This document shows positions 41,046-57,965 of a DNA stretch of 64,000 bases, piece after piece; the stretch's first letter is position 1, and the number at the start of each line of letters is the position of its first letter. The notes under the pieces are model-generated. The model was given only the letters and a program-made list of their open reading frames with translations, searched no databases and was not told the DNA's origin. Origin of the DNA: an uncultured delta proteobacterium (GTDB taxonomy: Bacteria; Desulfobacterota; BSN033; UBA1163); assembly GCA_963828805.1 (NCBI GenBank), contig CAWHGS010000043.1:585-64584 (forward strand), read 5' to 3'. Both the position numbers and the translations under genes were made by a program.

Positions 41046-41822
41046 TTATTTGTCCTTGTTGAAGAACTTAGCAAGCCGTTCCCTGACTTCACTAAAGTCA
41101 CCAACACTCGAATAGCCGTTGATTGTTTCAAGGCGCAGAGCGTCGTCCAGTGGCCGACCGATGATATCGAGCACCGTTTCCTTTGCGGAGCGTATCGCTT
41201 GCTGGCTGTTTCCAAGGATCATGTTCGCGTAGGTTTCCGCGGCGGACAGAACCTGCTCGGCGGGAACAACTTTGTTAACAAGACCAAACCGAAAGGCTTC
41301 ATCTGCAAGTACCTCCCGACCCGTAAGCGTCAGTTCCAGCGCCACGGCTACACCCGCGATGGCCACGAGGCGAACCAGGCCTCCGTCGCCTTGATGCAAC
41401 CCCTGGCGCACCTCGAACACCCCGAACTTTGCAGAGTCCGCGGCGACGCGGATGTCACAAGCCAGAGCCAGCTCGAATCCGCCGCCGATCGCGTGACCGT
41501 TGATCGCTGCGATGATCGGCTTCGTCATTCGATGCTGACCACGCGTGATGCCTCCGCCAATGCCGCGGGCTGCGTTGCGGCGGGCGTCCAGCATATTGGC
41601 GTGCTCCCATTTCGGAATAAACGTCTTGAGGTCGGCGCCCGCGCAAAAGGCTTTACCTGCGCCGGTCAGGATTGCAACATCTACGGAGGGATCGTCATTG
41701 AAATCCCGCCAGATAGCCCAGAGCTCGTCATTCATCTCGTCATCCAGGGCATTCAGCGCGTCGGGCCGATTTAGCGTGACATACGCAATTCGGTTCTTCT
41801 TTTCGTAAATGGCTTTTCCCAT
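41046..41822 (-). CDS. enoyl-CoA hydratase/isomerase (crotonase) family protein
   Basis: Sequence RIAYVTLNRPDALNAL...AILTGAGKAFCAGADL...PIIAAINGHAIGGGFELALACD. The ORF is intact at 258 aa. Confidence 0.85.
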   Translation of the reverse strand: MGKAIYEKKNRIAYVTLNRPDALNALDDEMNDELWAIWRDFNDDPSVDVAILTGAGKAFCAGADLKTFIPKWEHANMLDARRNAARGIGGGITRGQHRMTKPIIAAINGHAIGGGFELALACDIRVAADSAKFGVFEVRQGLHQGDGGLVRLVAIAGVAVALELTLTGREVLADEAFRFGLVNKVVPAEQVLSAAETYANMILGNSQQAIRSAKETVLDIIGRPLDDALRLETINGYSSVGDFSEVRERLAKFFNKDK

Positions 41823-42129
41823 TGCGAGTCTCCTCCTGAAGCCAATGTGGACCTATCGGTGAGCTAACCGGTATGCACTTTTTCGCGCGTCCGCTCGAAC
41901 GATTTGTCAGGCGTGTAGTTTTTTTCGCAATTTGGATTAGCGACAGCAGGGCACTATTCACAGCTTCTTGATTTGGGAAAGCTTGAGCGACTTCCGGTTT
42001 AAGTACAACAACGTTTGATGATTCACGGAGACGTTCGGCATACTTGCCCCGCACGAGCCCCTTGGGAAAGTCCGACCGTTTGTACTCGGCACGTAATTCG
42101 TCTTTATCTCTTTGTTTAGCCTTCTTCAT
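41740..42129 (-). CDS. brnA: BrnA-like antitoxin (long C-terminal tail overlaps the crotonase start)
   Basis: Sequence ...RAEYKRSDFPKGLVRGKYAERL...VVLKPEVAQAFPNQEAVNSALLSLIQIAKK. The start overlaps the stop of the upstream DUF497 gene. Confidence 0.55.
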   Translation of the reverse strand: MKKAKQRDKDELRAEYKRSDFPKGLVRGKYAERLRESSNVVVLKPEVAQAFPNQEAVNSALLSLIQIAKKTTRLTNRSSGRAKKCIPVSSPIGPHWLQEETRNGKSHLRKEEPNCVCHAKSARRAECPG

Positions 42130-42388
42130 ATAGTTTTCGCTCTCCTTTGCTCGCTAAACGAGCACTTATGATTCGAATCGTTTCATCTTCCTCAGTGTGA
42201 GCCACCACCAGCAACCGACCTCGGTCTGAGACTCCGAAGGTGATATATCGATCTTCGGTAATCGAGTGATCCGGATCAGCACCTGTTGCCGCCATAGGGT
42301 CACTCATGGCTGTTGCGGCTTCCTCGAACGAGACTTTGTGTTTTCGTAAGTTTAACCTGGCCTTCTTCGGGTCCCATTCGATTTTCAT
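42116..42388 (-). CDS. brnT: BrnT toxin (DUF497)
   Basis: Sequence MKIEWDPKKARLNLRKHKVSFEEAATAMSDP...EDRYITFGVSDRGRLLVVAHTEEDETIRIISARLASKGERKLYEE, the canonical DUF497 pattern. Confidence 0.8.
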   Translation of the reverse strand: MKIEWDPKKARLNLRKHKVSFEEAATAMSDPMAATGADPDHSITEDRYITFGVSDRGRLLVVAHTEEDETIRIISARLASKGERKLYEEG

Positions 42389-42670
42389 TTTATTATTATA
42401 CCTTAATTCCGATATTATCGTCCAACGCAGATTGAATCCTGGTCTTGGGATTTCAGCGCAGATCAGGCGCGCATGAGGGAACATTATATATTATTGTACT
42501 TATGACGCGAGTATATAAAAGCAATTGGGATGTGTTAAGGAGTCTTTCTTGAGGAATGCTTGATACAATAGTAATGGTATCGGTGGGTTCGCTACGCTTA
42601 ACCCACCCTACTTTTGGTTTAGACTTTATTTTTTTGTTTCGTGTACTTACCCTATGCGCTGTGCTATTTT

Positions 42671-43160
42671 TCACACCTCAACACCGAGGTAACGAATCAG
42701 GACATCCTTTTTCCCCTGGACCTCTTCGGCCGGGGCATGGAATTCGATCTTTCCCTTTACCATGAAATAGACGCGGTGGGCCAGGGACAGGGCAAAGGGG
42801 ATCTTCTCCTCCACCAAAATGATCGCTATCCCCTGTTCGTTCAGCTTCCTGATGATCTCCAATAACTTGGATACAAAAATGGGCATCAAACCCGTTGTGG
42901 GCTCATCCAATAAAAGGATGTCCGGCTTCTTCACCAGGGCCCTTGAGATGGCAAGGGCCTGCTGTTCTCCGCCGCTCAGGGTCCCGGCCAGCTGACCCAA
43001 CCTTTCCCGAAGCACAGGAAAGAGGTCGAAAATCCCCTCTAACGAACCCATATCCGATGGGTCCTTCATGCCTGTTTTCAGGTTTTCCAGCACGGTCATC
43101 TTGGGAAAGAGCTGTCTCCCCTGGGGGGCATAGCCAATCCCTCTTCGGGCAACCTTAAAG
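42671..43160 (-). pseudogene. 5'-truncated branched-chain amino acid ABC transporter ATP-binding gene (LivF-like remnant)
   Basis: The ABC signature LSGGEQQALAISRAL and Walker B ILLLDEPTTGL are present, but there is no Walker A. The missing N-terminus would overlap the end of the ttcA-like gene. Confidence 0.7.
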
Positions 43161-43181
43161 GCTGGAAACCGCAGACACGTT

Positions 43182-43970
43182 TCATTTCTCAACGTCCATA
43201 TACAGGTAGTCCAGTTTGACATTGGAGAGAGACCGGAAAATATTGCCTTTTATCTTTGTGTTCTTCCTTTCCAGCGTGGCGATCAGCTCCTTTATCTCCT
43301 TCCGCTTCGTGCTTCCGGAGCTCGGGCACCCGCTCGGAACGACAGGTAACTCCATCTTTCGGGCAAACCGCGCGATCTTCTTCTCCTCAATCAGGGCCAG
43401 GGGACGAATGATCGTCATCTCTCCCTTAAACATCGTTTGCATGGGAAGCATGGTGCTGATTTGAGCACTGTAAAAGAGGTTGAGGAGAAAGGTTTCGATG
43501 ATATCGTCCTTATGATGTCCAAACGCGATTTTATTACACTGGAGACTGCGCGCGGTCTTGAAAATCAGCTTCCTTCTCTCCCAGGAGCAGAGGAAGCAGG
43601 GGTTCTCCCGGTTCTCGCGGCTGTGGGCAAGTTTTCCGATTTGCGTCTCCTCGAAATGGTAAGACAAACCCCTTGTCTCAAAAAACTCCCTTAGTGACTC
43701 CTGCCGCCCCGAACCGAAGCCCATGTCGATATGGACCGGGATCAACTCATAGGTGATGGCGACCCGCTTTCTCCGTTCATGGAGGAGATGGAGCAGAGAG
43801 AGGCTATCCTTCCCTCCCGACACTCCCACCAGGATCCGGTCCCCGTCCTGGATCAACCCATAGCGGTGAATCGCCTTTCCCATCAAGCTGCGTATTTCCT
43901 TTTCCCAGTGAGCCATCCTCAATCCCGCATAGGGCAAAGGGCTTAGAGCAAGTAATATTTGCTCCAACAA
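43182..43970 (-). CDS. ttcA: TtcA-family tRNA 2-thiolation PP-loop ATPase
   Basis: PP-loop motif ILVGVSGGKDSLSLLHLL and cysteine motif CFLCSWERRKLIF. The likely start is MAHWEKE (43916). Confidence 0.75.
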   Translation of the reverse strand: MLEQILLALSPLPYAGLRMAHWEKEIRSLMGKAIHRYGLIQDGDRILVGVSGGKDSLSLLHLLHERRKRVAITYELIPVHIDMGFGSGRQESLREFFETRGLSYHFEETQIGKLAHSRENRENPCFLCSWERRKLIFKTARSLQCNKIAFGHHKDDIIETFLLNLFYSAQISTMLPMQTMFKGEMTIIRPLALIEEKKIARFARKMELPVVPSGCPSSGSTKRKEIKELIATLERKNTKIKGNIFRSLSNVKLDYLYMDVEK

Positions 43971-44089
43971 ATCTCGAACCCTTGAACCCTTGGCCCCTTA
44001 AGTCATTATCATTATAGATTGCATATCCTTCCTTGTCAAAAGGCAATCCCCCTTGAATTTTCCGATAGTTATAGTAAGATGAAGGTGAG

Positions 44090-46245
44090 ATGCTAAGAAT
44101 CAATGACATTGTAGACCGGGTCCTTTCCTACAACCCGAATGCAGACGTCGACCTTATCCGCAAGGCCTATGTCTTCTCTGCAAAGGTCCATATCGGCCAG
44201 GTGCGACTCTCCGGAGAGCCCTATCTCATCCATCCCCTGGAAGTCACCGGCATCTTGACCCAGATGAAACTCGATGCTGCCAGTGTGGCCACCGGGCTTC
44301 TCCACGACACGGTGGAGGATACCCTCACCACCCTCAAGGATATTCAGGAAAACTTCGGAGAAGAAGTTGCCCAGCTGGTCGATGGACTGACAAAGATCAG
44401 CAAGATCTCCCTCCGGTCCCCTGAAGAAGGCCAGGCAGAGAATTTCAGGAAGATGATTCTCGCCATGGTGAAGGACATCCGGGTGATCCTGATCAAGCTG
44501 GCTGACCGGCTCCACAACATGCGGACCCTCCAGTATCACTCCTCCTGAAAAACAGGCGGAGATCGCCCAGGAGACCCTCGATATCTACGCCCCCATCGCC
44601 AACCGTCTCGGGATCGACTGGATCAAATCGGAACTGCAGGACCTGGCCTTTCGTTACCTCCATCCGGATATCTATGAGGATATCCAGCGTAAGATCGCCA
44701 AGAAAGAGAAGGAAAGGTCCAGTTATATCGATGAAGTGAAAAGAACCTGATGAAAAAGCTTTATGAGAACCACATCGAAGGAGAAGTGATCGGGTCGCCT
44801 AAAGCAGATCTACAGCATCTTTGAGAAGATGCGGGACCAGAACATCGATTTCGATCAGGTCTATGATATCACCGCCTTCCGGGTCGTCGTCAATACGATC
44901 AAGGATTGCTATGACGTCCTGGGAATCATCCATTCCATCTGGAAGCCCATCCCCGGAAAATTCAAGGACTATGTCGGCCTGCCCAAAGAGAATATGTACC
45001 AATCGCTCCACACCTCTGTCATCGGGCCGTATGGGGAAAGGATCGAGATCCAGATCCGGACCCATGAGATGCACAGGATTGCCGAGGAAGGCATTGCCGC
45101 CCACTGGAAGTATAAGGAAGGGAAAGGAAGTGGAGGAGGCGGATGACAAGCGGTTTACGTGGCTGAGGCAGCTCCTCGAATGGCAGCATGATTTGAAGGA
45201 TGACGCGGAGTTTATCGAGAGCGTCAAGGTCGACCTTTTCCCGAATGAAGTCTACATCTTCACTCCGAAGGGATCCGTGAAACAGTTTCCACTGGGCGCG
45301 ACCCCGGTCGATTTCGCTTACAGCATTCATTCGGATGTGGGCAATCACTGTCATGGGAGCAAAGGTCAATGGAAAGATCGTTCCCCTCAAATATGAATTA
45401 AGGAGCGGAGATACGATCGAGATTCTCACCTCTCCCAATCAGAAACCGAGCAAGGACTGGCTCAAAAATCGTCAAGACCTCCCGGGCCAAAACCAAAATC
45501 CGCCAGTGGTTCAAAACGGAGGAGCGGGAAAAATCGATCGCTCTCGGAAAAGAAATCCTCGAAAAGGAGCTCCGGAAATATGACCTCCAGCAGGCCAAAT
45601 TGATGAAATCAGGCGACCTCGCCAAGGTGGCGACTGAATTCAGTTTCCAGGGTGTGGAGGACCTCATCGCAGCAGTCGGTTACGGAAAGATAACGGCCAA
45701 TCAGATCATCGGAAAGATCATTCCCCAGGAGAAGCTGGAACAACAGAAGCAACAGGAGGAAGGGAGGCTCAAGCGCATCCTTCAGAAGTTCACCCGCGGA
45801 TCCGAAGGATGCCCTCCTCATCAAGGGAGTCGACAATGTGATGGTCCGTTATGCCGGATGCTGCAATCCTCTTCCAGGAGACAAGGTCATTGGGTTCATC
45901 ACCCGCGGCAGGGGAGTGACCATCCATGCGGCTGATTGTCCGAATACCCTGGACGATGATCCCAATCGAAAGGTTGAAGTCGAATGGGATTCGACGAAGG
46001 AATATAGTTATCCCGTCCGGATTCGTGTCTTTTCTGAAGACAAGAAAGGCCTTCTTGCGGAAATCAGCTCCTCCATGTCTTCCAATGAAGCCAATATTAC
46101 CAATGCAAGGGTGGACACGACGGAGGAGAGAAGGGCGATCGGAACCTTTGAAGTCGAAATTCGAGATCTAAGTCACCTGAAGAAGGTGATCAAGGGTCTC
46201 GAAAAAATTAAGGGGGTTCATCGGGTTGAGCGGATGAGGACGTAA
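44090..46245 (+). pseudogene. relA: bifunctional (p)ppGpp synthetase/hydrolase RelA/SpoT homolog, interrupted
   Basis: HD domain HPLEVTGILTQMKLDAASVATGLLHDTVEDT. Synthetase region [39 protein letters not shown] and ACT fragments (45838-46245) lie in alternating frames. Confidence 0.9.
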
Positions 46246-46638: not shown

Positions 46639-47805
46639 TCAGGTCCAGATCCCGGGGATCGGTTTACCGCAGAACTTACATTTTCCTTCCTTAAGATTCA
46701 CTTCTCCGACCATGTACCCTGCCCGCTTGATCACCATTTTCTTGCACTTCGGGCAGAAGGTGTTCTCACCCTCGTGGCCCGGCACGTTTCCGATGTAAAC
46801 ATATTCGAGACCCGCGGATTGAGCGATGGACCGGGCCTTCTCCAGGGTTGAGACCGGCGTTGGGGGGAGGCCTTTCAGCTTAAATAATGGGTAGAAACGG
46901 GAGAAATGGAGCGGAGTCTCCGCTCCCAATTCCTTCTGTATCCAGACACACATCTCCTTCAGGGTGGACAGGTCGTCATTCTTGGTCGGAATCACCAGAT
47001 TCGTTATCTCAAGATGAACCTTCTCCCGTTTATAGGTCTTCAGCGTCTCAAGCACAGGCTGAAGTTCCCCGCTGCAGACATCGCGGTAGAAGTCATCCGT
47101 AAACCCCTTCAGATCGATATTGGCCGCATCCATGACCCTGCACAGGTTCCGGAGGGGCTCCGGATTGATGAACCCATTCGAGTGGCAGACATTGAGAAGC
47201 CCTGCCCTCTTCGCAAGCTCTCCGATATCCGCCATGTACTCGTAAAAGATCATCGGCTCAACATAGGTGTAGGCGACAGACCGGGCCCCCATCTCTTTGG
47301 CCTTGCCGATGACGAGCTCCGGAGGCACATCGTAATTGTACAGGTCCTCGGGCGAAGCCTGAGAGATTTCCCAGTTCTGGCAGAACTTGCACTGGAGGTT
47401 GCATCCAGCCGTGGCGAGCGAGAAAGAAGTTGTTGCCGGAAGAACGTGAAAGAGCGGCTTCTTCTCGATCGGATCCAGGTGAATGGCGCACGGGTTCCCG
47501 TAAACCAGGCTGTAGTATTTCCCGTCCCGATTCTCCCGGACCCGGCAAAAACCTCTCTTCCCCTTCGATACCCTGCAGGACCTCGGACAGAGGTCGCACC
47601 GGACGTCGCCCCCGCTGAGCGGGGTGAAGTAGGGAGAGAGCTTGGTTTTGACGAGTCCCTTCTTCTGAGTCTGGGCTCCTGTCCCCTTTGGAATGAGCGA
47701 AGCGAGTGCAACAGCGCAGATACCCTTTCCGCAGATCTCCAGAAACTCTCTCTTCGATACGCCGGAAAAAGCAGAAACTCGGGGAGTCAAACGTGGCTCG
47801 CTCAT
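46639..47805 (-). CDS. AmmeMemoRadiSam-system-type radical SAM enzyme with Tat-like N-terminal leader
   Basis: Radical SAM cluster motif GCNLQCKFCQNWEIS. Upstream CDLCPRSC...GFCRVR and a C-terminal CPKCKK...CKFCG ribbon. The N-terminal SKREFLEICGKGICAVALASL resembles a Tat/anchor leader. Confidence 0.7.
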   Translation of the reverse strand: MSEPRLTPRVSAFSGVSKREFLEICGKGICAVALASLIPKGTGAQTQKKGLVKTKLSPYFTPLSGGDVRCDLCPRSCRVSKGKRGFCRVRENRDGKYYSLVYGNPCAIHLDPIEKKPLFHVLPATTSFSLATAGCNLQCKFCQNWEISQASPEDLYNYDVPPELVIGKAKEMGARSVAYTYVEPMIFYEYMADIGELAKRAGLLNVCHSNGFINPEPLRNLCRVMDAANIDLKGFTDDFYRDVCSGELQPVLETLKTYKREKVHLEITNLVIPTKNDDLSTLKEMCVWIQKELGAETPLHFSRFYPLFKLKGLPPTPVSTLEKARSIAQSAGLEYVYIGNVPGHEGENTFCPKCKKMVIKRAGYMVGEVNLKEGKCKFCGKPIPGIWT

Positions 47806-47874: not shown

Positions 47875-48936
47875 GTGACCCGCATGGACCTCACACGCCG
47901 CAGGTTTATAAAGAGATCTCTTCTTTTCGGAAGTTCGCTTCTATTCTCTCTCCCCAGCTTACAGGCCAAACCCGTAAAGGACGAAAAATGGATTCCAGCT
48001 TATGCAAATCTTGAAAAGGAAGGGAAATTCGGCCAGAAGGTCAAGGAAGCCTATGCCCTCTTCGAAAAGTGCGAACTCTGCCCCCGGAAGTGCGGGGTCA
48101 ACCGGGCCAGGGGCGAGAAAGGCTTCTGCAGGGCCCCCCTGAAGCCCGTGGTCTTCGGTCACCACCCTCACTTCGGCGAAGAAATGTCCCTGGTCGGGCA
48201 GAACGGGTCAGGAACAATCTTCTTCTCCAACTGTAACCTCCGCTGTATCTTCTGCCAGAACTGGCCCATTGCCCACGAGGGAAGAGGCAAGGAGATCCGC
48301 GATGAAGACCTTGCCGAGATGATGCTCGACCTCCAGGGCAAGGGTTGCCATAATATCAACCTGGTCACACCCACGCACGTCATGCCCAACATCCTGAACG
48401 CGATCCGGATTGCCTTAAAGAAGGGACTGAATCTCCCTATCATGTACAACACGAGCGGCTATGAACGCGTCGAAGCACTGAAACGGCTCGACGGCGTTGT
48501 CGACATCTACAAACCCGATTTTAAATACATGGATCCTGATAAGGCGGAAAAGTATTCCGCCGGAGCCTCTGACTATCCCGAGGTAACAAAAAAGGCGGTC
48601 ATCGAAATGAACCGGCAGGTCGGGGTGCTCCAGCTTGATAGCCATGGGGTTGCCAGGCGTGGGGTGATCATCCGGCATCTGGTCATGCCCAACCGGGTTG
48701 CCGGAACGGAGGAGTTCACTCGGTGGGTGTCAGAGTCCCTTCCCAAGAACACCTATATCAACATCATGGCCCAGTACCGGGTTGAGTATAAGGCATTTGA
48801 ATATCCGGAGATTGCACGGGGAATCACGGTCCAGGAATTCACAGAGGCCATGGACTGGGCCATCCGCTACGGTCTCACAAACCTGGACCCGAAATCAAAG
48901 GAACTGAGGGAATTTTACCGGCGCCGTGCCGGGTAG
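47875..48936 (+). CDS. PflX-like (COG1313-type) radical SAM protein with twin-arginine leader
   Basis: MDLTRRRFIKRSLLFGSSLLFSLPSLQA is a Tat consensus (RRxFIK). It also has CELCPRKC...GFCRA and CNLRCIFCQNW. Confidence 0.65.
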   Translation: MTRMDLTRRRFIKRSLLFGSSLLFSLPSLQAKPVKDEKWIPAYANLEKEGKFGQKVKEAYALFEKCELCPRKCGVNRARGEKGFCRAPLKPVVFGHHPHFGEEMSLVGQNGSGTIFFSNCNLRCIFCQNWPIAHEGRGKEIRDEDLAEMMLDLQGKGCHNINLVTPTHVMPNILNAIRIALKKGLNLPIMYNTSGYERVEALKRLDGVVDIYKPDFKYMDPDKAEKYSAGASDYPEVTKKAVIEMNRQVGVLQLDSHGVARRGVIIRHLVMPNRVAGTEEFTRWVSESLPKNTYINIMAQYRVEYKAFEYPEIARGITVQEFTEAMDWAIRYGLTNLDPKSKELREFYRRRAG

Positions 48937-49148
48937 GAAAGAGCAACTATTGATACATCCCCTGAACCCCAAGCGAATCCATCCGAGCTATTCAATCGTA
49001 AACGTCCTGATCTCTGAGATGGTTTCACGATTTATTCCATCCCATGCCCTGATCCTGAAGTAACCAGTCCACGTCTCCACCGTTCCCGGCCTTGGGCAGC
49101 GATTCCCCAGGCGTCTCACCGCAGGGGTCGGCGCATCATGCAGAGACG

Positions 49149-50405
49149 TTATTTGGCTCGGGACTGGCGGTAGTACCACTGCATCTGTCCTGCGCTGCTC
49201 TCTTCGTCCACGTTCTCCATGGTAACCATCTTCTTCCCGGCGGCAGGGAGGCAACACTTCTTTCAGTTTCCACTGATTATCCAGCCGTCCGAAGGTCCAA
49301 TACTCCTCGAAAGGAGTTACGTATTCCTGCTGATCCCTGAGCTTGTCGCCTTCGTAGAAAATCCTCTGGGCGTGGGCGCTGATTCTCACCGTGTATTCGT
49401 CTTTGGAGTTATCGGCGAAATTCCGCACCAGGATCAGCTCAGCCTTTCGCACGCAGAGATTGCGGTACTCAACCCTTCGCCCATCCTTCCTCCACTGCTG
49501 AATCTGTTGACGAAGGTGCTCGGTCACCTTCGGGAATAGATCGGCTGCAGGCACCTTATCCGGGTCTCCGGATTCTTTGGTCAGGTAGACTCTCATGAAG
49601 ACCTCCCGGGCCCGTTCAAGCATCTGGTTCCGGTCCCAGAGTCTATCGGTCTGCACAAGGAAGTTCAGCATGCGCTCGATGCGGGTTGCCTTCTCCTCGG
49701 TTTCCTTCTCCAGCCAGGGTCCTGCTTCCCCTTTCTTTTCGGCCACCTCTCCGTAGATCCCCTTGACGGTGTCATCGGTCAGCATCTCGGCGAAGTTCTC
49801 TTCCTTGAGCATATCGGATTCTCCGGCCTGCTCGATCTCCCGCAGAAGCCACTCGGTCGCCAACCCGGTGGAAGGTCCAGAACTCCTGGAAACGGGCCGG
49901 CGCCTTGTCGCCTCGCAGGAATTTTCCGCTCCTGTCGTCCACATAGTAGTCTCTCGCCGATGCAGTAATCAGGGCTGTGAACTCCCGCTGATCCGGCTTC
50001 TCCGTGTACCGGACGTTGACCAGGTCGATGTATTCCACCTTGAGGTTCTCGATCCGGTTGATCTCGTGGTTCGCAACCATTCCACTTAACTGGGCCGTGT
50101 GCTGGTTGAACAGGTCCGGCATCATGAGGGGCTTCATGGGCTCATACTTCCGGGCCTGCCAGCACTCCTGGAGCTTTCGAAAAGTGGAATCGGCCAGCTT
50201 CCGCAATTCCTCGGGCTTGACCGAGGAATCCTGCTGACCGAGGAAAATCAGTAGCTTTTCGGTCTTCCCAGCCTTCGGGGACTACCTTGTTTCTGTCATA
50301 AACAAAATCAAGGTTTTCGCTCTTCTTGCTCTTCCTACTTGCTCTCCATAAGGCAATAAATATTATCGAAGAAGACAAGAATGAAAAGCCCAGAAAACAA
50401 ACCAA
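49149..50405 (-). pseudogene. membrane-anchored protein with two Tim44-like domains, interrupted
   Basis: N-terminal TM helix MVCFLGFSFLSSSIIFIALW. Domain 1 is FRKLQECWQARKY...FQEFWTFHR...WLLREIEQ. Domain 2 is AREVFMRVYL...FEEYWTFGRLDNQWKLKEVLP. My corrected tail ...KKMVTMENVDEESSAGQMQWYYRQSRAK* ends at 49149. Confidence 0.65.
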
Positions 50406-50417
50406 GATGAACCACCT

Positions 50418-52185
50418 TCACCGACCCCCGCCACTGCTGGAACTGGAACGACTGGAACTGGAACTTCCCCCCTTGTTGTGGGTCACAAAGTTTGCCGCCA
50501 AAAAGGTATTGGGCGATCCGACACTGAGGTTGTAGACCGGTTCTTCCTTTTCCCCCAGTTGGGTCCGAAGGACTGTTGCGGACCGCACTTCGCCGTCATT
50601 CCAATTAAGAACCTTCTGCCCGGGCCGGAGCCTGCCAGCCGGGATAAACCCTCCGCCCAGTAGCCCCACGGGATGGTCTGTCGTGGTCCTTAGGCAGCCA
50701 CGATCCGTTTCGACGGCAAGCACGAGCGAGCGGGTATCGAAGATCTTCTCAACCCGCGTCTCCAACCTCTGGCCCTGAGAGTCCAGCGCAAGAACCGGCT
50801 CCCCCGGGGAGAGCTTCTCAATCGCAGTTTCGCCCTTCGGGGTACAGATCGGGGTCCCTGCCGGGAAGCACCCGCCTCCCTTGTTGTGGACAACGATCCC
50901 ATCCGCTATGAATGTATTGGGCGCTTCCACCTGGAGGTTGAAGACCAACTCATCACCTACCGGATGGGAGATGCCATGCACCTTCCTTTCAACCAGCCTG
51001 CCGTCCTTCCACTTCAGGATTCGGTCTCCCGGCCGGAGTTCCCCGGCCTGTCTGAACCTTCCTCTTCCAATGCTTACAGGGTGCTCCTCTGTGGCAGCCA
51101 GGACCTCTTCGCCCGTCCTGATCTGCATGACAGGGCTTTTGCTGATAAAGAGGACTTTCACAGTGGTCCGGACGGTATGACCTTCGGTGTCAACCGCAAG
51201 AACCTCATCACCCGATGCGAGTGTCTCAATGGAAACCGTTCCATGGGGTGTCGCAATCTTTGTGCCGGCTGGGAAGCACCCCCCTCCTCCGCCCTTGTTG
51301 TGAACGGCAAGTTGGCCCGCGAAAAAGGTGTTAGGGTGATCGGTCTGGAGGTTAAAGACCTCCACTTGCTCATGGACTTTTTGCAATGAGACAATCCGCT
51401 GCTCGGCAAGCCACTTGTCCGTCCCAAGTAAAAACCGTATCCCCCTCTTTGAGCGCTTCAACGGTCTTGAACGTGCCATGTCCAACATAAAAGGGGTGCT
51501 CGGCCGTGACCCGAAGCGTTGTCTGGTCTGTCTTAAGGAGAAAGTATTCGTCGACCTTGAGACGAACGATCTCCCGCACCCTTGCCTGAACCATGCGCCC
51601 TCCAGGCTTAAAGGCCAGGAGCGTCGTCCCCCGGCCTGAGGGCACTGATTGGTGATTCTGTTCCGTCTGGCCTGAGAATCCGGCTATCCGGCAGAAAACA
51701 CCCTTTGTTATGAACAACGAGCCCCTCTGTAACAAACGTCCCGCCAGGGCTGACGAGCAGGTTATAAGCCGGCCGCCTTGCGGCCATCCGGCGGACCGAC
51801 AGAACCTGGGCTGGCGCGGAGGCGTCCATTTCGCATTTCGAAAACCGTGTCGCCCTTGCTTGAGCCGATCCGCGAGTCGGTATTCGCCCCGGCCCACCAT
51901 CAACAGATGTTCGGCAGTAACCTCCAGTCTCGACCCGGAAGCCGAAACTTCCAGAAATTCCTCTGGCTCCACCGCCGTCAGCGCCTGGACTTCGGCCCTC
52001 TTCAGCCTCCCCTCCACGACGCTCCAGACGGTGTCTCCCTTCTTCAGCCTTTCGATGGCAACCGATCCATCCGGGGTCGAAACGAGCGTACCCTCTGCCA
52101 AACACCCTCCGCCCCCCCGTGCCCACGAAATGACAGGGCTAAGACAGAGCAGGAGAACGGCTGACCACCACATCATCCACGCCAT
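50418..52185 (-). pseudogene. exported protein consisting of four tandem Hint (intein-like) modules, interrupted by frame shifts
   Basis: Signal peptide MAWMMWWSAVLLLCLSPVISWA. The four modules span 52104-51707, 51700-51297, 51278-50883 and 50870-50475. Each is Cys...TxxH...HN, and they are joined by K-G(n) linkers. The Ser/Gly tail ends at 50418. Confidence 0.7.
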
Positions 52186-52277
52186 ACGCACCTTCCTTGA
52201 TTCGTGACTGAGGCCAACACTCACATCAAACCTCATGCGTCGCGCTGCATCTCAGAGACCGGTGACCTTACTCGTGC

Positions 52278-52547
52278 TCAATGCAGGGCAGCGATCACAC
52301 CGCCCAGCACTGCAGCCGCCACAACAATGCTCAGCCCGAGAATGACGGCTCCCACGATCCGACCATAGTACTCGGCAACGGCCGTGTTCCCGCGGACAAT
52401 CTCTTTGTGCTCATCGATATCCGGGGTCAGCCGGTTAATCAGCGCCGGGACGATCAGGGAGGCGATCAGCACGAGCACCATGCCGATCAGGCCCCCGATG
52501 AACGAAAAAACCATCGACCAACCAATGTTCCGAACGGTATCAAACAT
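52278..52547 (-). CDS. DUF350 small membrane protein
   Basis: 89-aa ORF with two or three TM helices and EIVRGNTAVAEYYGRIVGAVILGLSIVVAAAV (DUF350-like). It has a GGAAAGGGGG RBS. Confidence 0.6.
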   Translation of the reverse strand: MFDTVRNIGWSMVFSFIGGLIGMVLVLIASLIVPALINRLTPDIDEHKEIVRGNTAVAEYYGRIVGAVILGLSIVVAAAVLGGVIAALH

Positions 52548-52718
52548 AGATCCCCCTTTCCGAAATGAACGATCTTAATGAGTTTCGATCTCCGACGATG
52601 TGTCATTCGCGCATGCCGGAAGCGAATCATCCATCGGAAGATTGCCTCGTCGCTATCACTCACTCCGCTGACATGCTTTTCAATGGTCGGCCCCTGCACG
52701 AACGCCGCTGCATGTTGT

Positions 52719-53279
52719 TTACTGAAACTTGACCTGGGGAGCAACCCGCTCCTGGGCAGACTCCAGCTGGAAGAACGGCTCCGCCTGGAAGTTGAACATT
52801 CCGGCAACGATATTGCTCGGGAATACCTCGATCCGGTTCTTGTACTGCTTGGCCATGTCGTTGTAGTACTGCCGCGCAAAGCCGATCTTGTTTTCGGTCG
52901 TGGCCAGTTCCTCCTGCAGGGCAAGGAAATTCTGATTCGCCTTCAGATCCGGGTAGGCCTCGGCAACGGCAAACAGCGAGCGCAGGGTTTGGGTCAGGAC
53001 GTTCTCGACCTTCGCCCGGTCTTCGATGCTCCCGGTGAAGCTGATGGCCTGCTGCCGCGCCTTGACGACAGCCTCGAGTGTCTGCCTCTCGTGGGCTGCA
53101 TAGCCCTTGACGGTTTCGACCAGGTTGGGGATCAGGTCGTACCGGCGTTTGAGCGTGACGTCAATGGAGCTCCAGGCGCTCTTCACCTCGTTCCGGCCCC
53201 GCACCAGTCCATTGTAGAGGCCGATCACATAGAAAACCAATCCAGCGACGATGACAATGAGAATAATGAAAGTCACCAC
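52719..53279 (-). CDS. lemA: LemA family protein
   Basis: N-terminal TM helix, then YNGLVRGRNEVKSAWSSIDVTLKRRYDLIPNLVETVKGYAAHE...AYPDLKANQNF, the canonical LemA pattern. The ORF is intact at 186 aa. Confidence 0.85.
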   Translation of the reverse strand: MVTFIILIVIVAGLVFYVIGLYNGLVRGRNEVKSAWSSIDVTLKRRYDLIPNLVETVKGYAAHERQTLEAVVKARQQAISFTGSIEDRAKVENVLTQTLRSLFAVAEAYPDLKANQNFLALQEELATTENKIGFARQYYNDMAKQYKNRIEVFPSNIVAGMFNFQAEPFFQLESAQERVAPQVKFQ

Positions 53280-53479
53280 CTCATCCTCTCCTTTCTCTCA
53301 TAATTGTCACTCTAAACCGTTATCCGGAACCGTGTCATGAATTAGTTCAGATGATCGCTATGTGTCAATTTCAGAAGGTCCTTGGATTTCCGCTCATTTA
53401 AAGTCGAGAACTGAACGCAGACTCCAGCAAGGCAGGATTGACCTATGGAGATGAGTCAGTTCGTTGACTTTTGCGATGT

Positions 53480-54415
53480 CTAAGACTTCCTCCGGTCCAC
53501 TTTGACTTTTCCCCGGATCTCATCGAGGCACGTGATCCCTTTTGCCTCCATATACTTTTCTATGCCATCGATGATCTCAAAAACGACCCAGGGGTCTCTA
53601 AGCAGGGCCGTGCCAACGCCAACAGCGGTGGCGCCTGCCAGGATGAATTCGATGGCATCCTCCCAGGTCATGACCCCGCCCATGCCGATGATCGGGATCG
53701 CGAACGGTCCTGTAGACATCCCACACCATTTTGATGGCAACAGGCTTAATGGCCGGACCGGAAAGCCCTCCGATCACATTCCCGAGCTTCGGCCGTTGAG
53801 TCTGGATGTCGATGGCCATTCCTGCTAGGGTATTGATCAGGGTAAGGGCATCGGCCCCGTTCTTTTCAACGCTTCGTGGCAATCAACGTGATGTCACTGA
53901 CATTCGGGGTCAGCTTTGCAATCACAGGGAGTCTGGGTGCTTGCCTTCACCAGGCGAACAATCCGACCCGCCACCTCAGGATCAGCGCCAAGACTGCATC
54001 CTCCCATCTCCAGGTTGGGGCATGAGATATTCAGTTCAATGGCTGAAATGCCCTTCCTCCCGGTCAAGGAGGGCAGCCAGCTTGGGATAATCCTCTACGT
54101 AGTTTCCTGAAATGCTGACAATGACAGGAACATCCGCATTCTCTTAAAATAGGCAGATCGTGCTCGATGAAATGTCTAACCCCCTGGCTCTGGATCCCGA
54201 TGGAATTCAGGATCCCTGACACACACTCGGCGATCCTTGGATTTGGATTGCCTGCCCGTTTTTCCAGGGTGATGCTCTTGGCCGTAAAAGCCCCCAGCAC
54301 GTTCAGATCATAGAGTTGGGCAAGTTCCTGTCCATAGCCGCGAGGTTCCTGAGGCGGTCACGATCGGATTCTTCATCTTGATGCCACAGAGCGTGACACT
54401 GAGATCAGGTTTCAT
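53480..54415 (-). pseudogene. pyrD: dihydroorotate dehydrogenase (class 1B) catalytic subunit, interrupted
   Basis: My translation from 54415 gives MKPDLSVTLCGIKMKNPIVTASGT. The fragments are 54064-54300, 53598-53882 ([12 protein letters not shown]...[12 protein letters not shown]) and 53480-53740. Confidence 0.85.
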
Positions 54416-55216
54416 CGTCCAGTACCATTTCCTCTAAATCAAAAACAGGCCCCTCGGTGCAGACCCTCTGTTTTTCGATCACCCCATTCTTCCTGACATT
54501 AACGACACAGGACAGGCAGACCCCATAACCACAGCCCATCTTTTCTTCGACAGAGACCTCGCCCTTGATATGGGCTCTCTCGGATCATGGGGATGACCGC
54601 CTTGAGCATCAGAGGAGGTCCGCATACATAGACGCGATCGATCTCTCGTTTTAACATCTCTTCCAGATGGTCACTGACAAAACCCTTTAACCCGTAATGA
54701 ACCATCGTCTGTCGTCACGATCGATCTCGGCGCCATATCTCTCGGAAGACATCGATGCCAAATCAGGATCAGAAGACCGAAACCCCAGAAGAGCGATGAT
54801 CCTGTTTCTGTTCTGAGACAATCGATCCGCCAGGCCCCACAGAGGCGCTAATGCCCACCCCTCCTCCGATCAGAAGGCAGTTCTATCGGGTCTTCGGGGA
54901 GATGAAATCCCTTTCCCAGGGGGCCCAGGAGATCTACGGTATCTCCGGGTTTCAGGCCTTTCATTGCTGCTGTTCCCTTCCCCACGATTCGATAGACAAT
55001 CTCATACGGAGGACTGCTCCGGATGGGTTCTCGCAATGCTGAAGGGCCTTCGAAGCAGAAGTTCTTCCCTGTTGTTGATCTGCAGGTTGACGAATTGGCC
55101 TGGCAGGGTCAGCTCGGGCAAGCTCGTTCATCCCTCATGACCAGAAGGTAATGATCGGTGCAGAGCGGCCTGTTTTCGACGACGGAGGACTTATGATGAA
55201 GCTTTGATTCTTCCAT
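54405..55216 (-). pseudogene. pyrK: dihydroorotate dehydrogenase electron-transfer subunit, interrupted
   Basis: My translation from 55216 gives MEESKLHHKSSVVENRPLCTDHYLL. Fragments include ...VYRIVGKGTAAMKGLKPGDTVDLLGPLGKGF and ...VYVCGPPLMLKAV. The corrected tail carries the Fe-S Cys motif CGYGVCLSC. The stop overlaps the pyrD start. Confidence 0.75.
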
Positions 55217-55269
55217 GGACTGCCATCATACCGAAGCGACGGTAGGTTTGTCAAGAAAAGAACGTGCTT

Positions 55270-56809
55270 TTAAATAGAAGACGAGCTGACAGGGTAAGGA
55301 TCTTGAACCGTCAAAAACGAAAGCGTCATGAATACTTCTTCAAAATCTGCTTCGCCGACCATCAGGCCGCTCAAGACCTCACCCTCCAGACCCAGGTAGG
55401 GAAAGTTCTCTTTTCCGATGAAATAGAGATCTCTCGATAAACGGGTGGGATCGACCCCTTCCCTCCAGTTGAATGGCACCGGTGTCTCGTAGAGGATAAT
55501 GAGGATAAGACCATCGGCCGGTCTGTTCGCTGGCCCATTCAAAATCGGTGAAATCGAGGTATGGCTCCAAAAAAGGGATGAGATGGTTCAAATGATTCAT
55601 GATCGATTCTTGATGGGCCAAAGACACCTGGGTCCAGCTCCTGAATGGAACCAGGCTCTGGACCGTCAGCGCCCTGCGTCCCTCAGGAGCCGCCCTCTCA
55701 TCTCCTCTCGGACTGAGGCTGAGGAAAAGGACATTCCCTTCTTCATAGGGTTTTTCAAGATCGAGAATCGATACCAGCAGGTCCCTCATTCCAACCGGAA
55801 CGACCTTTTCGCGGATTCCAAAAAAACAAGGGAAAAGGATATACCGGGGCTGAATCCTCTCCAGCCATCTGGATAACGGGTTTTCCACTCTTTCCCAAAA
55901 AGATCTCGAAAAGGAGTGAAGAGGGGAATTGAGAATAAGAAATCTGACTTCGAAATACCCTCCGATCCCCTTCCAGGGTGAGGGTAAATCCCTTTCTCCA
56001 TCTCTTCTCCACCCTTTTTGCCTTTTCAATCTCCTCTATCTCTCCCCCGGATTGAAGAAAGGAGTCGAGGATTCTCCTCTCCAGATCCTTCAAGATCCAT
56101 GGAGGAAACCCACTCCCCACGCTCTTCATGGAGCAGGAGGTATGCAGCTAAGGAGATCGGAAAGGAATCTGAAAAGAGATTACCCCACGAAATCAGTTGA
56201 AGCTGGATAAACTCCCTAAACTCCTTTGAGAAAGAGGAGAGCCTCTCGTCTGTTCCAGCCTCTGGAAGGGATGAAAAGGATAGCCACTTCCGGATAAAAG
56301 ATCGGCTGATCAACAGGGAAAAAGGGAGAAGCCTCCTTCTTCTTCTGAGTCTTCAAAAGCTCCTGAAGAAGTCCGAGTTCGTCATAAAACGTCTCTATTT
56401 GAGCCATCTCTCCGGGAACTCCCTCTTCCATTCCATCCGGAAAAGCGAGGGGTCATCAAAAAGGTCTATTCTCGACTTCTGGAAGGATCACCTGAAAGGG
56501 AACCTTGCCCCGTCTCTTTCCAGGATCTCTTTCTTGCCGTAGAGATATCCCTTTCCGAATTTCCATTCCAGAAAAGAAAGGCCCAATTCCCGGGCAGATT
56601 TCTTGAAGAAGGGAAGGTCTCAGTCGCTTTTCTGAAAAATTTGAAAAAGGGGTAAATCGGTATCCGTCCCGTCGATAGGACGTTTGATATCCCTTCTCCC
56701 TGAGGAGAAGAACCGAATGCCTCTTCTTTGCCAACAGGGCTCCGGCGATGAGACCGCCCAGACCAGAACCTAAAACAATGACTTCATAATCATTGTCTTG
56801 GCGATTCAT
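55270..56809 (-). pseudogene. FAD-dependent oxidoreductase (phytoene desaturase/COG1233-like), heavily interrupted
   Basis: The N-terminal dinucleotide fold is YEVIVLGSGLGGLIAGALLAKKRHSVLLLRE. The rest is split over many frames. Confidence 0.55.
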
Positions 56810-56922
56810 CGATCTTAAGTGAGATCGTAATGAAGATGTTGCCCCGTTGCTTGCGGAGCACTACAGGTGGCCGGTTGAACGTTGGGTACGGAATGCGTAA
56901 GCTGAATGCCGTTCAATAGGGA

Positions 56923-57965
56923 TCAGAGATACTCGATCGTCTCTCCCTCTTTCTCCGATTTTCCAATCTCACCGATGACAGAGGCCTTTTCGCCCAGGTT
57001 ATTCAATCTTGAGAGGATATCGTCAACCTCTTTCGGCCTGACCACCAGGATCATCCCGATCCCGTTGTTGAAGGTTCTGAGCATCTCCTCTTCAGGGATA
57101 TTCCCTCTCTCTTTGAGATAGGAAAAGATGGGTGGAATATCCCAGGTCCCTTTGCGAATGATGGCCTTCGAACCCTTTGGGAATCACTCGGGGAAGATTT
57201 CCTGTGATGCCTCCGCCGGTGATATGAGCAATCCCTCCGATTTTGAAATCCCGGATGAGGTTCAGGATCGTCTTGACATAAATCTTGGTGGGTTTAAGGA
57301 GCTCTTCACCCAACACTTCACCAATCTCTTCAACCCGCTTGTCGAGGTTCATCTTATGATGTTCGATCAGGATTTTACGGACCAAAGAATAGCCATTGCT
57401 GTGCAGTCCGCTCGAGGCAATCCCGACCAGTTTATCTCCGACGGTGACACTGGACCCGTCGATCAGCTGAGCATCCTCCACAATCCCAACCACAAACCCG
57501 GCAAGATCGTACTCTCCCTCTTTGTAGAGCCCGGGCATTTCGGCCGTTTCACCGCCGATGAGAGAGCATTCCGCTTCCATACAGCCCTTCACAATTCCGC
57601 TCACCACCTTCGTTGCCCTTTCCGAATCGAGTTGGGAAGTTGCAAAATAGTCGAGGAAGAAGAGGGGCTTCGCTCCGGCTGACCACGATGTCATTCACGC
57701 ACATGGCGACCAGGTCGATTCCCACCGTATCATGGCGATCCATCAGGAAGGCAATCTTCAGTTTTGTCCCGACTCCGTCCGTCGAGGAGACCAGAATCGG
57801 TTTCTTGTAACGCTCCAGATTGAGGGAGAAGCATCCGGCAAAACCGCCGATCTTCGTCAACACCTCGGGCCGAAAGGTCGATTCCACCATCGGTTTGATC
57901 GTCTGGACAAAGGTATCTGCCTTGTCGATGTCTACTCCCGCATCTTTATACAGTGTCTTTTTCAC
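56923..57965 (-). pseudogene. purM: phosphoribosylformylglycinamidine cyclo-ligase, interrupted
   Basis: Sequence [20 protein letters not shown]...GGFAGCFSL...[11 protein letters not shown], and 57092-57694 (...[14 protein letters not shown]...). My corrected C-terminus ...VIGEIGKSEKEGETIEYL* ends at 56923. Confidence 0.9.

Follow-up and report, generated by a model that had tools for sequence, protein, structure and literature searches.

The A-type bacterial intein-like (BIL) domains, which reportedly go back to Amitai et al. 2003, combine a mini-Hint fold with a cysteine at position 1 (Cys1), a TxxH motif and a C-terminal His-Asn pair, and occur in exported bacterial proteins. They lack the +1 nucleophile (Cys, Ser or Thr) and mainly perform N- and C-terminal cleavage (PMC7664689, PMC7765530), and the known BIL domains sit in hypervariable regions of non-conserved proteins (PMC7765530). 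In the BIL2 domain of Tetrahymena thermophila BUBL1 the amino group of a lysine acts as the nucleophile, resulting in an isopeptide bond without ATP (PMC8616854). The present work deals with a gene from a 64,000-nucleotide stretch of DNA of an uncultured delta proteobacterium (contig CAWHGS010000043.1; the whole stretch is called the window below), whose product carries four Hint units of this kind, a transmembrane (TM) helix and two Tim44-like domains (the pair is denoted Tim44x2). Together with genes of a DUF350-type membrane protein and of a LemA family protein it forms a module of three genes. An earlier note on the same DNA had read this region as a membrane-associated operon of four genes.

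The Hint units share the mini-Hint fold, Cys1, TxxH, the terminal His-Asn and the lack of Cys/Ser/Thr at +1 with the BIL domain of Clostridium thermocellum (2LWY), which is their best match in a PDB sequence search (Table 1) and a top structural match. Unlike the known A-type BIL domains, they follow one another head to tail, 1–4 in number (up to five in more distant relatives) and joined by nothing but Lys-Gly(n); their position in the membrane protein is fixed, the protein itself is highly conserved, and the Lys at +1 is nearly invariant. The best structural match of the units (E 2e-9, with a sequence identity of ~19%) is BUBL1 BIL2 (6Y75, 6TMM), and its Lys chemistry provides a rationale for the +1 Lys. 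BUBL1 BIL2 is, however, eukaryotic and cytoplasmic and is flanked by ubiquitin-like cargo, whereas no ubiquitin-like domain is present here and the "exteins" are 2–6 residues long.

The other parts of the module have described relatives as well. The Tim44 C-terminal domain, mL45 and TimA (PF04280) are NTF2-like domains of the membrane surface, to which both Tim44-like domains are related by Pfam and by the fold found with Foldseek; in contrast to them, the domains of the present protein are duplicated, TM-anchored and fused to a Hint array that is predicted to be exported. The module LemA has in common with the LemA family and MamQ the membership in PF04011 and the layout of an N-terminal TM helix followed by a helical domain, but its partners here are DUF350 and the Hint-Tim44 protein, and this in deltaproteobacterial (Desulfobacterota-type) loci only. 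MamQ is a magnetosome membrane protein with a membrane role, and LemA commonly partners TPM/YgcG or DUF2207 proteins. YjfL of the PspA-polyamine operons belongs, like the module DUF350 protein, to PF03994 and is a small polytopic membrane protein; it has 4 or 8 TM helices, and DUF350 occurs in PspA operons (PMC11237479). The module protein differs from it in being a single half-unit with two TM helices. Each domain of the module thus belongs to a known family, while their combination appears to be new as far as the literature was searched: the search returned no description of a Hint/Tim44/DUF350/LemA combination or of tandem, nearly extein-less BIL arrays, absence there being no proof.

The gene was reconstructed by frameshift-aware protein-to-DNA alignment of an intact homologue (P0002, 92% identical) to the window. 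The alignment spans 52185 to 49152 without a break, is identical at 915 of 1011 positions and places seven extra single bases in the window gene, near 51861, 51809, 51625, 51417, 50282, 49852 and 49248. The same seven one-base gaps appear in the DNA alignment to the contig of P0002 (L081), which also served as the reference for dN/dS of the window copy. On the map of open reading frames (ORFs) of the window, the Hint part and the Tim44 part are each scattered over three reading frames. A search with the hand-joined Hint sequence yielded intact fused homologues of 1005–1030 aa (P0001-P0120), the closest of them being P0001 (94% identical) and P0002, with others down to 42%; the Tim44 query retrieves the same fused proteins.

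A scan with one genome per species found a relative encoded in 264 genomes, and 80 loci were retrieved for comparison. They come from deltaproteobacterial metagenome-assembled genomes (MAGs; Syntrophales/Syntrophaceae, Syntrophobacterales, Desulfarculales, Desulfobacteraceae, Geobacteraceae and Anaeromyxobacteraceae labels), from Verrucomicrobiota, Planctomycetota, Lentisphaerae, Kiritimatiellaeota and Nitrospirota, and from Gammaproteobacteria including the cultured Legionella massiliensis LegA. In 79 of the 80 loci Hint and Tim44 form one continuous ORF with the same layout: signal peptide, 1–4 Hint units, Gly/Ser linker, TM helix and two Tim44-like domains. The earlier note had correctly given the spacings of the region, namely 12 nt from the TGA at 50420-50418 to a TTG at 50405, ~92 nt separating DUF350 from the Hint start, and a distance of 171 nt from LemA to DUF350. 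The 12-nt gap is nevertheless not an intergenic spacer, because both its sides belong to one polypeptide in 79/80 loci and in all intact homologues. The four genes of that note are therefore three, and its exported 4xHint protein and its TM-anchored double Tim44 protein are joined in one chain. Its domain calls (LemA, DUF350, Hint and Tim44-like) are each matched by Pfam and the quoted motifs are present; the autoprocessing residues of the Hint part (Cys1, TxxH, His-Asn) are intact, in line with the self-processing that it had proposed, and the number of Hint units, which it had taken as four, ranges from 0 to 5 among relatives.

Hint families (Pfam Hint_2, PT-HINT PF07591 and Intein_splicing) match the ORF fragments between 50418 and 52236, and DNA repeats with a period of 408-414 nt coincide with the Hint units, the positions of which are listed in Table 1. 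A unit is ~132 aa long and the linkers between units consist of Lys-Gly(1-5) only. Residues were counted in 679 Hint segments comprising 626 complete units: the Gly-Cys start is found in every complete unit, TxxH in 613/626, and the HNKG end, with Lys at +1, in 659/679 segments. All four units of the window contain Cys1 and TxxH. The Hint fold matches 6Y75 (TMt 0.79), 2LWY (0.86) and the NpuDnaB intein (0.87) in Foldseek, mini-inteins and Hedgehog ranking after the BIL domains. The units differ from canonical inteins in having Lys at +1, in their size, in the lack of an endonuclease and in their location in the N-terminal tail. The array is preceded by the motif A/RGGGG-C (the slash marks the predicted signal peptide end) in 135 of the 182 complete homologues; this motif suggests cleavage by signal peptidase and predicts export of the array. 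An N-terminal helix (residues 2-14) is present in the AlphaFold2 (AF2) model of P0002.

The number of units varies with lineage. The 182 complete proteins include H1-H2-H3-H4 (70 proteins), H1-H2-H4 (33), H1-H2-H3 (28), H1-H2 (24) and H2 alone (13). H2 is always present and is the most conserved unit, with a mean pairwise identity of 64% and 34 of 134 columns conserved at ≥95%. Three loci of Verrucomicrobiota and Phycisphaerae (L006, L007, L008) have four units arranged as H1-H2-H4-H4 or H1-H2-H2-H4 when typed against those of the window, which suggests independent duplications of units and not an inherited H1-H2-H3-H4 form. Pairwise distance matrices of the Hint and Tim44 parts correlate (r = 0.85-0.88), and dN/dS of the Hint part between loci is 0.09-0.25. 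Since the distances track those of the Tim44 part and purifying selection acts, the Hint units are long-standing residents of the gene.

The basic stretch that follows the TM helix predicts a cytoplasmic location of the Tim44 part. PF04280 matches the ORFs 49772-50206 and 48988-49944 with 52.4 and 37.1 bits (cutoff 29.6), and a 580-nt DNA repeat corresponds to the two FxE(F/Y)WTF motifs. Domain 2 is followed by a conserved tail, ENVDEESS..QMQWYYRQSRAK, nearly invariant in the homologue alignments. The AF2 model of P0002 (pLDDT 76) consists of four beta-rich units, a disordered Ser/Gly linker, the TM helix, two alpha+beta domains and two short C-terminal helices. With a separate model of Tim44x2, Foldseek found the Tim44 C-terminal domains 3QK9 and 2CW9 (E ~3e-6) and 2FXT, as well as mitoribosomal mL45, ARC6/PARC6 and the double-NTF2 protein TcpC. 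A PDB sequence search with the Tim44x2 part gave no match, so that fold comparison alone succeeded. The protein is not a member of NCBIfam TimA (NF033779; 45.5 bits at a cutoff of 80). The mean identity of the Tim44 part across phyla is 68%, and the Tim44x2 profile (threshold E ≤ 1e-3) matches 2471 representative clusters.

Some relatives have no Hint units at all: in P0305, P0315, P0326 and P0375 a signal peptide ending in ..ARGG runs straight into a Gly/Ser/Tyr-rich tail, followed by TM and Tim44x2. The Hint units are thus an optional insertion right after the signal peptide. DUF350 lies directly upstream at two of the three Hint-less loci examined (P0305, where it is 49% identical to that of the window, and P0375); it was not found at P0326, nor at a single-Tim44 relative. 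Because Hint-less relatives keep this partner, the core of the module is DUF350 plus the TM-anchored Tim44x2 protein. As a separate observation, in the Hint-less locus L082 (5001-11539; also L083 and L084) a peptidase U32 gene overlaps the end of the DUF350/Tim44x2 pair by 4 nt, and behind it on the same strand lie genes of chorismate mutase, EPSP synthase, shikimate dehydrogenase, chorismate synthase and shikimate kinase.

To find neighbours, all ORFs of the 80 loci were queried with LemA and DUF350 of the window and were also clustered. DUF350 lies directly upstream of the Hint-Tim44 gene on the same strand in 71/80 loci, with a median gap of 59 nt, and the pairing spans Desulfobacterota, the Planctomycetes-Verrucomicrobia-Chlamydiae (PVC) phyla, Nitrospirota and Legionella. 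Loci without detected DUF350 mostly have little or no DNA upstream. The sole one with ample upstream DNA is L031, where ~90 nt separate the end of LemA from the big gene and contain no detected DUF350 ORF. LemA stands upstream of DUF350 in 42/80 loci, labelled Deltaproteobacteria, Desulfobacterota-type orders and, once, Pseudomonadota; it was not found in the loci of Verrucomicrobiota, Planctomycetota, Nitrospirota, Lentisphaerae and Legionella. DUF350 is thus the constant partner of the big gene, and LemA a lineage-specific accessory. The recurrence of the arrangement (80 loci fetched, 264 matching genomes) is far beyond chance. In L081 the LemA/DUF350/big-gene block is intact while its flanking genes are unlike those of the window; therefore the block moves as a unit. 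The clustering gave no further conserved neighbours in the 80 loci, among them no PspA, CesT/Tir or polyamine genes, and other recurrent ORF "clusters" were rejected as shadow ORFs overlapping the big gene. The survey bears out a syntenic membrane-associated cluster, uncharacterised in the literature searched; DUF350 and the big gene recur together, but LemA, one of the members in the earlier note, is not universal. The occurrence of the DUF350 family in Psp-type loci, also claimed there, is confirmed by PMC11237479.

The two smaller proteins differ in the strength of their family assignment. LemA reaches 202.4 bits with PF04011 (cutoff 26.2) and covers the full domain (profile positions 1-149 of 149), whereas DUF350 passes the PF03994 cutoff of 26.0 barely, with 26.5 bits, and its match is confined to the latter half of the profile (positions 76-133 of 133). 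The C-terminal domain of LemA is predicted to be cytoplasmic from Arg/Lys right after its TM helix. LemA is not a member of the NCBIfam MamQ equivalog (NF040966; 76.9 bits at a cutoff of 250, E 1.5e-21).

Table 1. Features of the LemA/DUF350/Hint-Tim44 module in the window (coordinates of the window, strand and basis of the assignment).
Feature	Position	Strand	Basis
Hint-Tim44 gene, ~1010-aa bitopic membrane protein	49149..52185	-	Frameshift-aware alignment to P0002; DNA alignment to L081
Predicted signal peptide MAWMMWWSAVLLLCLSPVISWA, then RGGGG, then Cys1 of H1	52120..52185	-	Sequence reading
Hint unit H1 (Cys1 ... TAEH ... VHN, then KG), two inserted bases	51707..52104	-	Pfam, P0002 alignment
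Hint unit H2 (CFLPDS ... TAEHPFYVG ... VHN, then KGGGGG), two inserted bases	51297..51700	-	P0002 alignment
Hint unit H3 (CFPAGT ... TEEHP ... VHN, then KGGG)	50883..51278	-	Best PDB sequence match 2LWY, E 1.8e-11
Hint unit H4 (CFPAGT ... TTDHP ... THN, then KGG, Ser-rich linker)	50475..50870	-	Pfam, P0002 alignment
In-frame TGA, Gly-rich linker before TM helix	50418..50420	-	One stop in P0002 alignment path
TM helix WFILVCFLGFSFLSSSIIFIALW, then RASRKSKKSENLDFVY	50346..50414	-	Sequence reading; P0002 AF2 helix 593-619
Tim44-like (NTF2-like) domain 1 with FQEFWTF	49862..50194	-	PF04280 E 8e-14
Tim44-like (NTF2-like) domain 2 with FEEYWTFGR	49255..49653	-	PF04280 E 4.2e-9
DUF350-type membrane protein, 89 aa, two hydrophobic helices, intact	52278..52547	-	Pfam PF03994
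LemA-DUF350 spacer, 171 nt	52548..52718	-	81% identical to L081
LemA family gene, 186 aa, intact	52719..53279	-	Pfam PF04011, E 4e-60
Sigma-70-like promoter match ATGACA-18-TAGAGT, just upstream of LemA	53309..53338	-	9/12 matches

Taken together, the data are best described by a chromosomal three-gene membrane module in which the big gene encodes an exported, self-excising Hint array, a TM helix and a cytoplasmic Tim44x2 part, with DUF350 as the constant and LemA as the accessory partner; we assign this reading a probability of roughly 0.6. According to it, a Sec-type signal peptide would export the N-terminal array of four mini-Hint domains of the BIL kind, with Tim44x2 and the acidic/aromatic tail remaining in the cytoplasm. 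Each Hint unit would form a Gly-Cys thioester at its N-terminal junction and cleave at its C-terminal Asn. The units would then be excised in the periplasm either by plain cleavage (hydrolysis) or with ligation through the +1 Lys, the near invariance of which would fit Lys-mediated splicing. The product would be TM-Tim44x2 with a short Gly/Lys/Ser-rich outer tail, i.e. the form that Hint-less relatives encode directly. On the inner face of the cytoplasmic membrane, the DUF350/Tim44x2 core would probably bind lipids or the membrane itself and contribute to membrane homeostasis. Such a role at the membrane surface is the most likely one by analogy, because Tim44 domains are membrane-surface modules, DUF350/YjfL is found in PspA operons and LemA is of the MamQ family. 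The membrane-integrity or stress role put forward in the earlier note would likewise follow by association with these families. Candidate benefits of the Hint units are a timer or sensor of periplasmic conditions, an own role of the released Hint domains, and thioester transfer to other molecules.

Several points weigh against this reading. Gene structure, synteny, conservation of the catalytic residues and folds are shown by the data, whereas processing, topology and function are predicted; moreover, the confidence of the AF2 models is medium (pLDDT 74-76), and they are silent on complexes. Hint-less relatives indicate that the core works without Hint units, which might then add nothing for the host. 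The conservation of H2 is near that of the Tim44 part, which is not what one would expect of a domain that the protein just sheds. With 171 nt and 92 nt, the spacers exceed those usual in a tight operon, so that co-transcription is only putative. The seven insertions cluster in the Hint-Tim44 gene, and LemA, DUF350 and two radical SAM genes (~3 kb) are without frameshift, so that a very recent genuine inactivation keeps some probability.

It is also conceivable, though in our opinion unlikely, that the Hint units are intein-like passengers without host function, harmless through self-excision, and that only the DUF350/TM-Tim44x2 core matters. This would agree with the Hint-less relatives, which have the same tail, TM and Tim44x2 layout and retain DUF350, with the copy number of 0 to 5 across lineages, and with the location of the conserved Hint columns mostly in the classical splicing blocks. 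On the other hand, the units lack both a homing endonuclease and a Cys/Ser/Thr at +1, and they sit in the tail and not at a conserved site of an essential protein. Their co-inheritance with the host gene across phyla under purifying selection also speaks against a passenger, as does the fact that, among the matches listed, most complete family members have at least one Hint unit.

The seven insertions and the TGA of the window are most probably sequencing or assembly errors. All seven indels of the Hint-Tim44 gene are single-base insertions relative to L081, and in the LemA-DUF350 spacer the window again has six additional single bases and has lost none; besides these, two deletions of 9 and 11 nt distinguish the two sequences. 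The housekeeping gene of dihydroorotate dehydrogenase (pyrD, PF01180; 53480-54300, minus strand) is broken by frameshifts into at least three pieces, two of which match positions 37-88 and 240-291 of the PF01180 profile. Runs of short same-strand ORFs overlapping in different frames occupy 41046-43997, 44093-44798 and 53480-57694, which suggests many single-base indels across that part of the window; the frames of successive pieces would imply mostly +1 shifts. The noise is unevenly spread, the first 16 kb of the window containing long intact ORFs. After frame correction of the window copy, dN/dS against L081 is 0.18 for the Hint part, 0.11 for the Tim44 part, 0.03 for LemA and 0.12 for DUF350; the substitutions are under purifying selection with no sign of relaxed constraint. 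Assembly noise is therefore favoured: there are insertions only, pyrD and other genes are broken alike, and the substitutions are still purifying.

A genuine pseudogene of this organism, decaying via frameshifts and a nonsense mutation, appears improbable. The density of the damage (seven frameshifts and one stop in 3 kb, next to the abovementioned intact genes) is what such decay would explain. Genuine bacterial gene decay is deletion-biased, whereas every event here is a +1 insertion and even the spacer has gained bases without losing any. Nor would decay of this gene account for the similar fragmentation of housekeeping pyrD and further genes of the window, or for the strongly purifying substitutions (0.11-0.18) in the gene itself. 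Noisy long-read MAGs break such genes into pseudo-operons, and a reading of the letters alone accepts these at face value.

A more far-reaching variant, which we rate as a long shot drawn by analogy, regards the tandem BIL array as the bacterial counterpart of ciliate BUBL, a device for conjugation in the periplasm without ATP. A unit would activate the upstream Gly C-terminus as a thioester and then hand it over to the amine of a Lys, which in cis would be the +1 Lys and would give an isopeptide-branched tail; in trans, envelope proteins, peptidoglycan or phosphatidylethanolamine could serve as acceptors. How many transfers a molecule can make would depend on its number of Hint units, and Tim44x2/DUF350 would couple the device to the state of the cytoplasmic membrane.

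The reading of the region as four separate genes, in which the 4xHint protein would be secreted on its own and a TM-anchored double Tim44 protein would start from the TTG at 50405, is very improbable. It draws on the TGA of the window with this possible start 12 nt downstream, and on public gene calls of the same genome, which include a 356-aa fragment as protein P0072. The TGA, however, shares its frame with the downstream TM/Tim44 part, and with seven frameshifts in the gene neither half is an intact ORF in the window. The single ORF of the related loci and the fusion in all full-length homologues stand against two proteins, too, and other "split" database entries end in frameshift garbage. 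Thus, the apparent Hint-only homologues P0058, P0033 and P0088 were rejected, as they finish in out-of-frame sequence, and so were "Tim44-only" homologues (~410 aa), which start within the TM helix or lie on short contigs.

The TGA falls in the least conserved stretch of the gene, where the window has GGT CGG TGA AGG TGG and L081 has GGT GGT GGG GAG ATT GCA TGG. Reading the site as GGT[c]GGT GAA GG. TGG would bring back the acidic residue present in homologues before the TM helix. Programmed readthrough or recoding was rejected because there is no stop at this position in any of the 79 continuous loci and the stop lies amid seven obvious frameshifts.

The least credible explanation, a polymorphic toxin with Hint releasing a C-terminal toxin or a related defence island, has in its favour that Pfam PT-HINT (PF07591) matches the units and that homologues are named "polymorphic toxin-type HINT domain-containing protein" by NCBI, but it was rejected, as the C-terminal part is the most conserved region and not a variable toxin, there is neither a conserved downstream immunity gene nor a trafficking domain, none of the three proteins matches the PADLOC anti-phage defence models, and tblastn gave no match in 72,556 plasmids or 50,697 phages that would point to mobile-element cargo. 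The database name is thus unsupported by the conserved C-terminal part, and the alternative name "Tim44 family lipid-binding protein" covers the Tim44-like half only.

The module occurs in no fewer than 264 species-level genomes from several phyla and presents an unusual natural case of several autoprocessing domains that follow each other head to tail, virtually unspaced and each before a near-invariant Lys. If Lys splicing or thioester transfer does take place, intein chemistry would be put to a new use in the bacterial envelope, and compact ligation tools could be derived from it. The module also offers an experimental entry to three poorly understood membrane families: LemA, DUF350 and the bacterial Tim44-like domains.

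Signals in the non-coding parts of the module are few. The promoter scan gave one site (Table 1) at 1.6 expected by chance, which is weak and uninformative. No terminator-like sites were detected in the LemA-DUF350 and DUF350-Hint spacers, and no regulatory RNA was found in the spacers by Rfam at E ≤ 0.1. The LemA-DUF350 spacer of the window is longer than in most related loci, in which the gap is typically ~15-110 nt. Just downstream of the module are two divergent radical SAM genes, at 46639-47805 (minus strand) and 47875-48936 (plus strand), which are not conserved neighbours. The product of the latter begins with MTRMDLTRRRFIKRSLLFGSS, which resembles a twin-arginine export signal and is unusual for a radical SAM enzyme.

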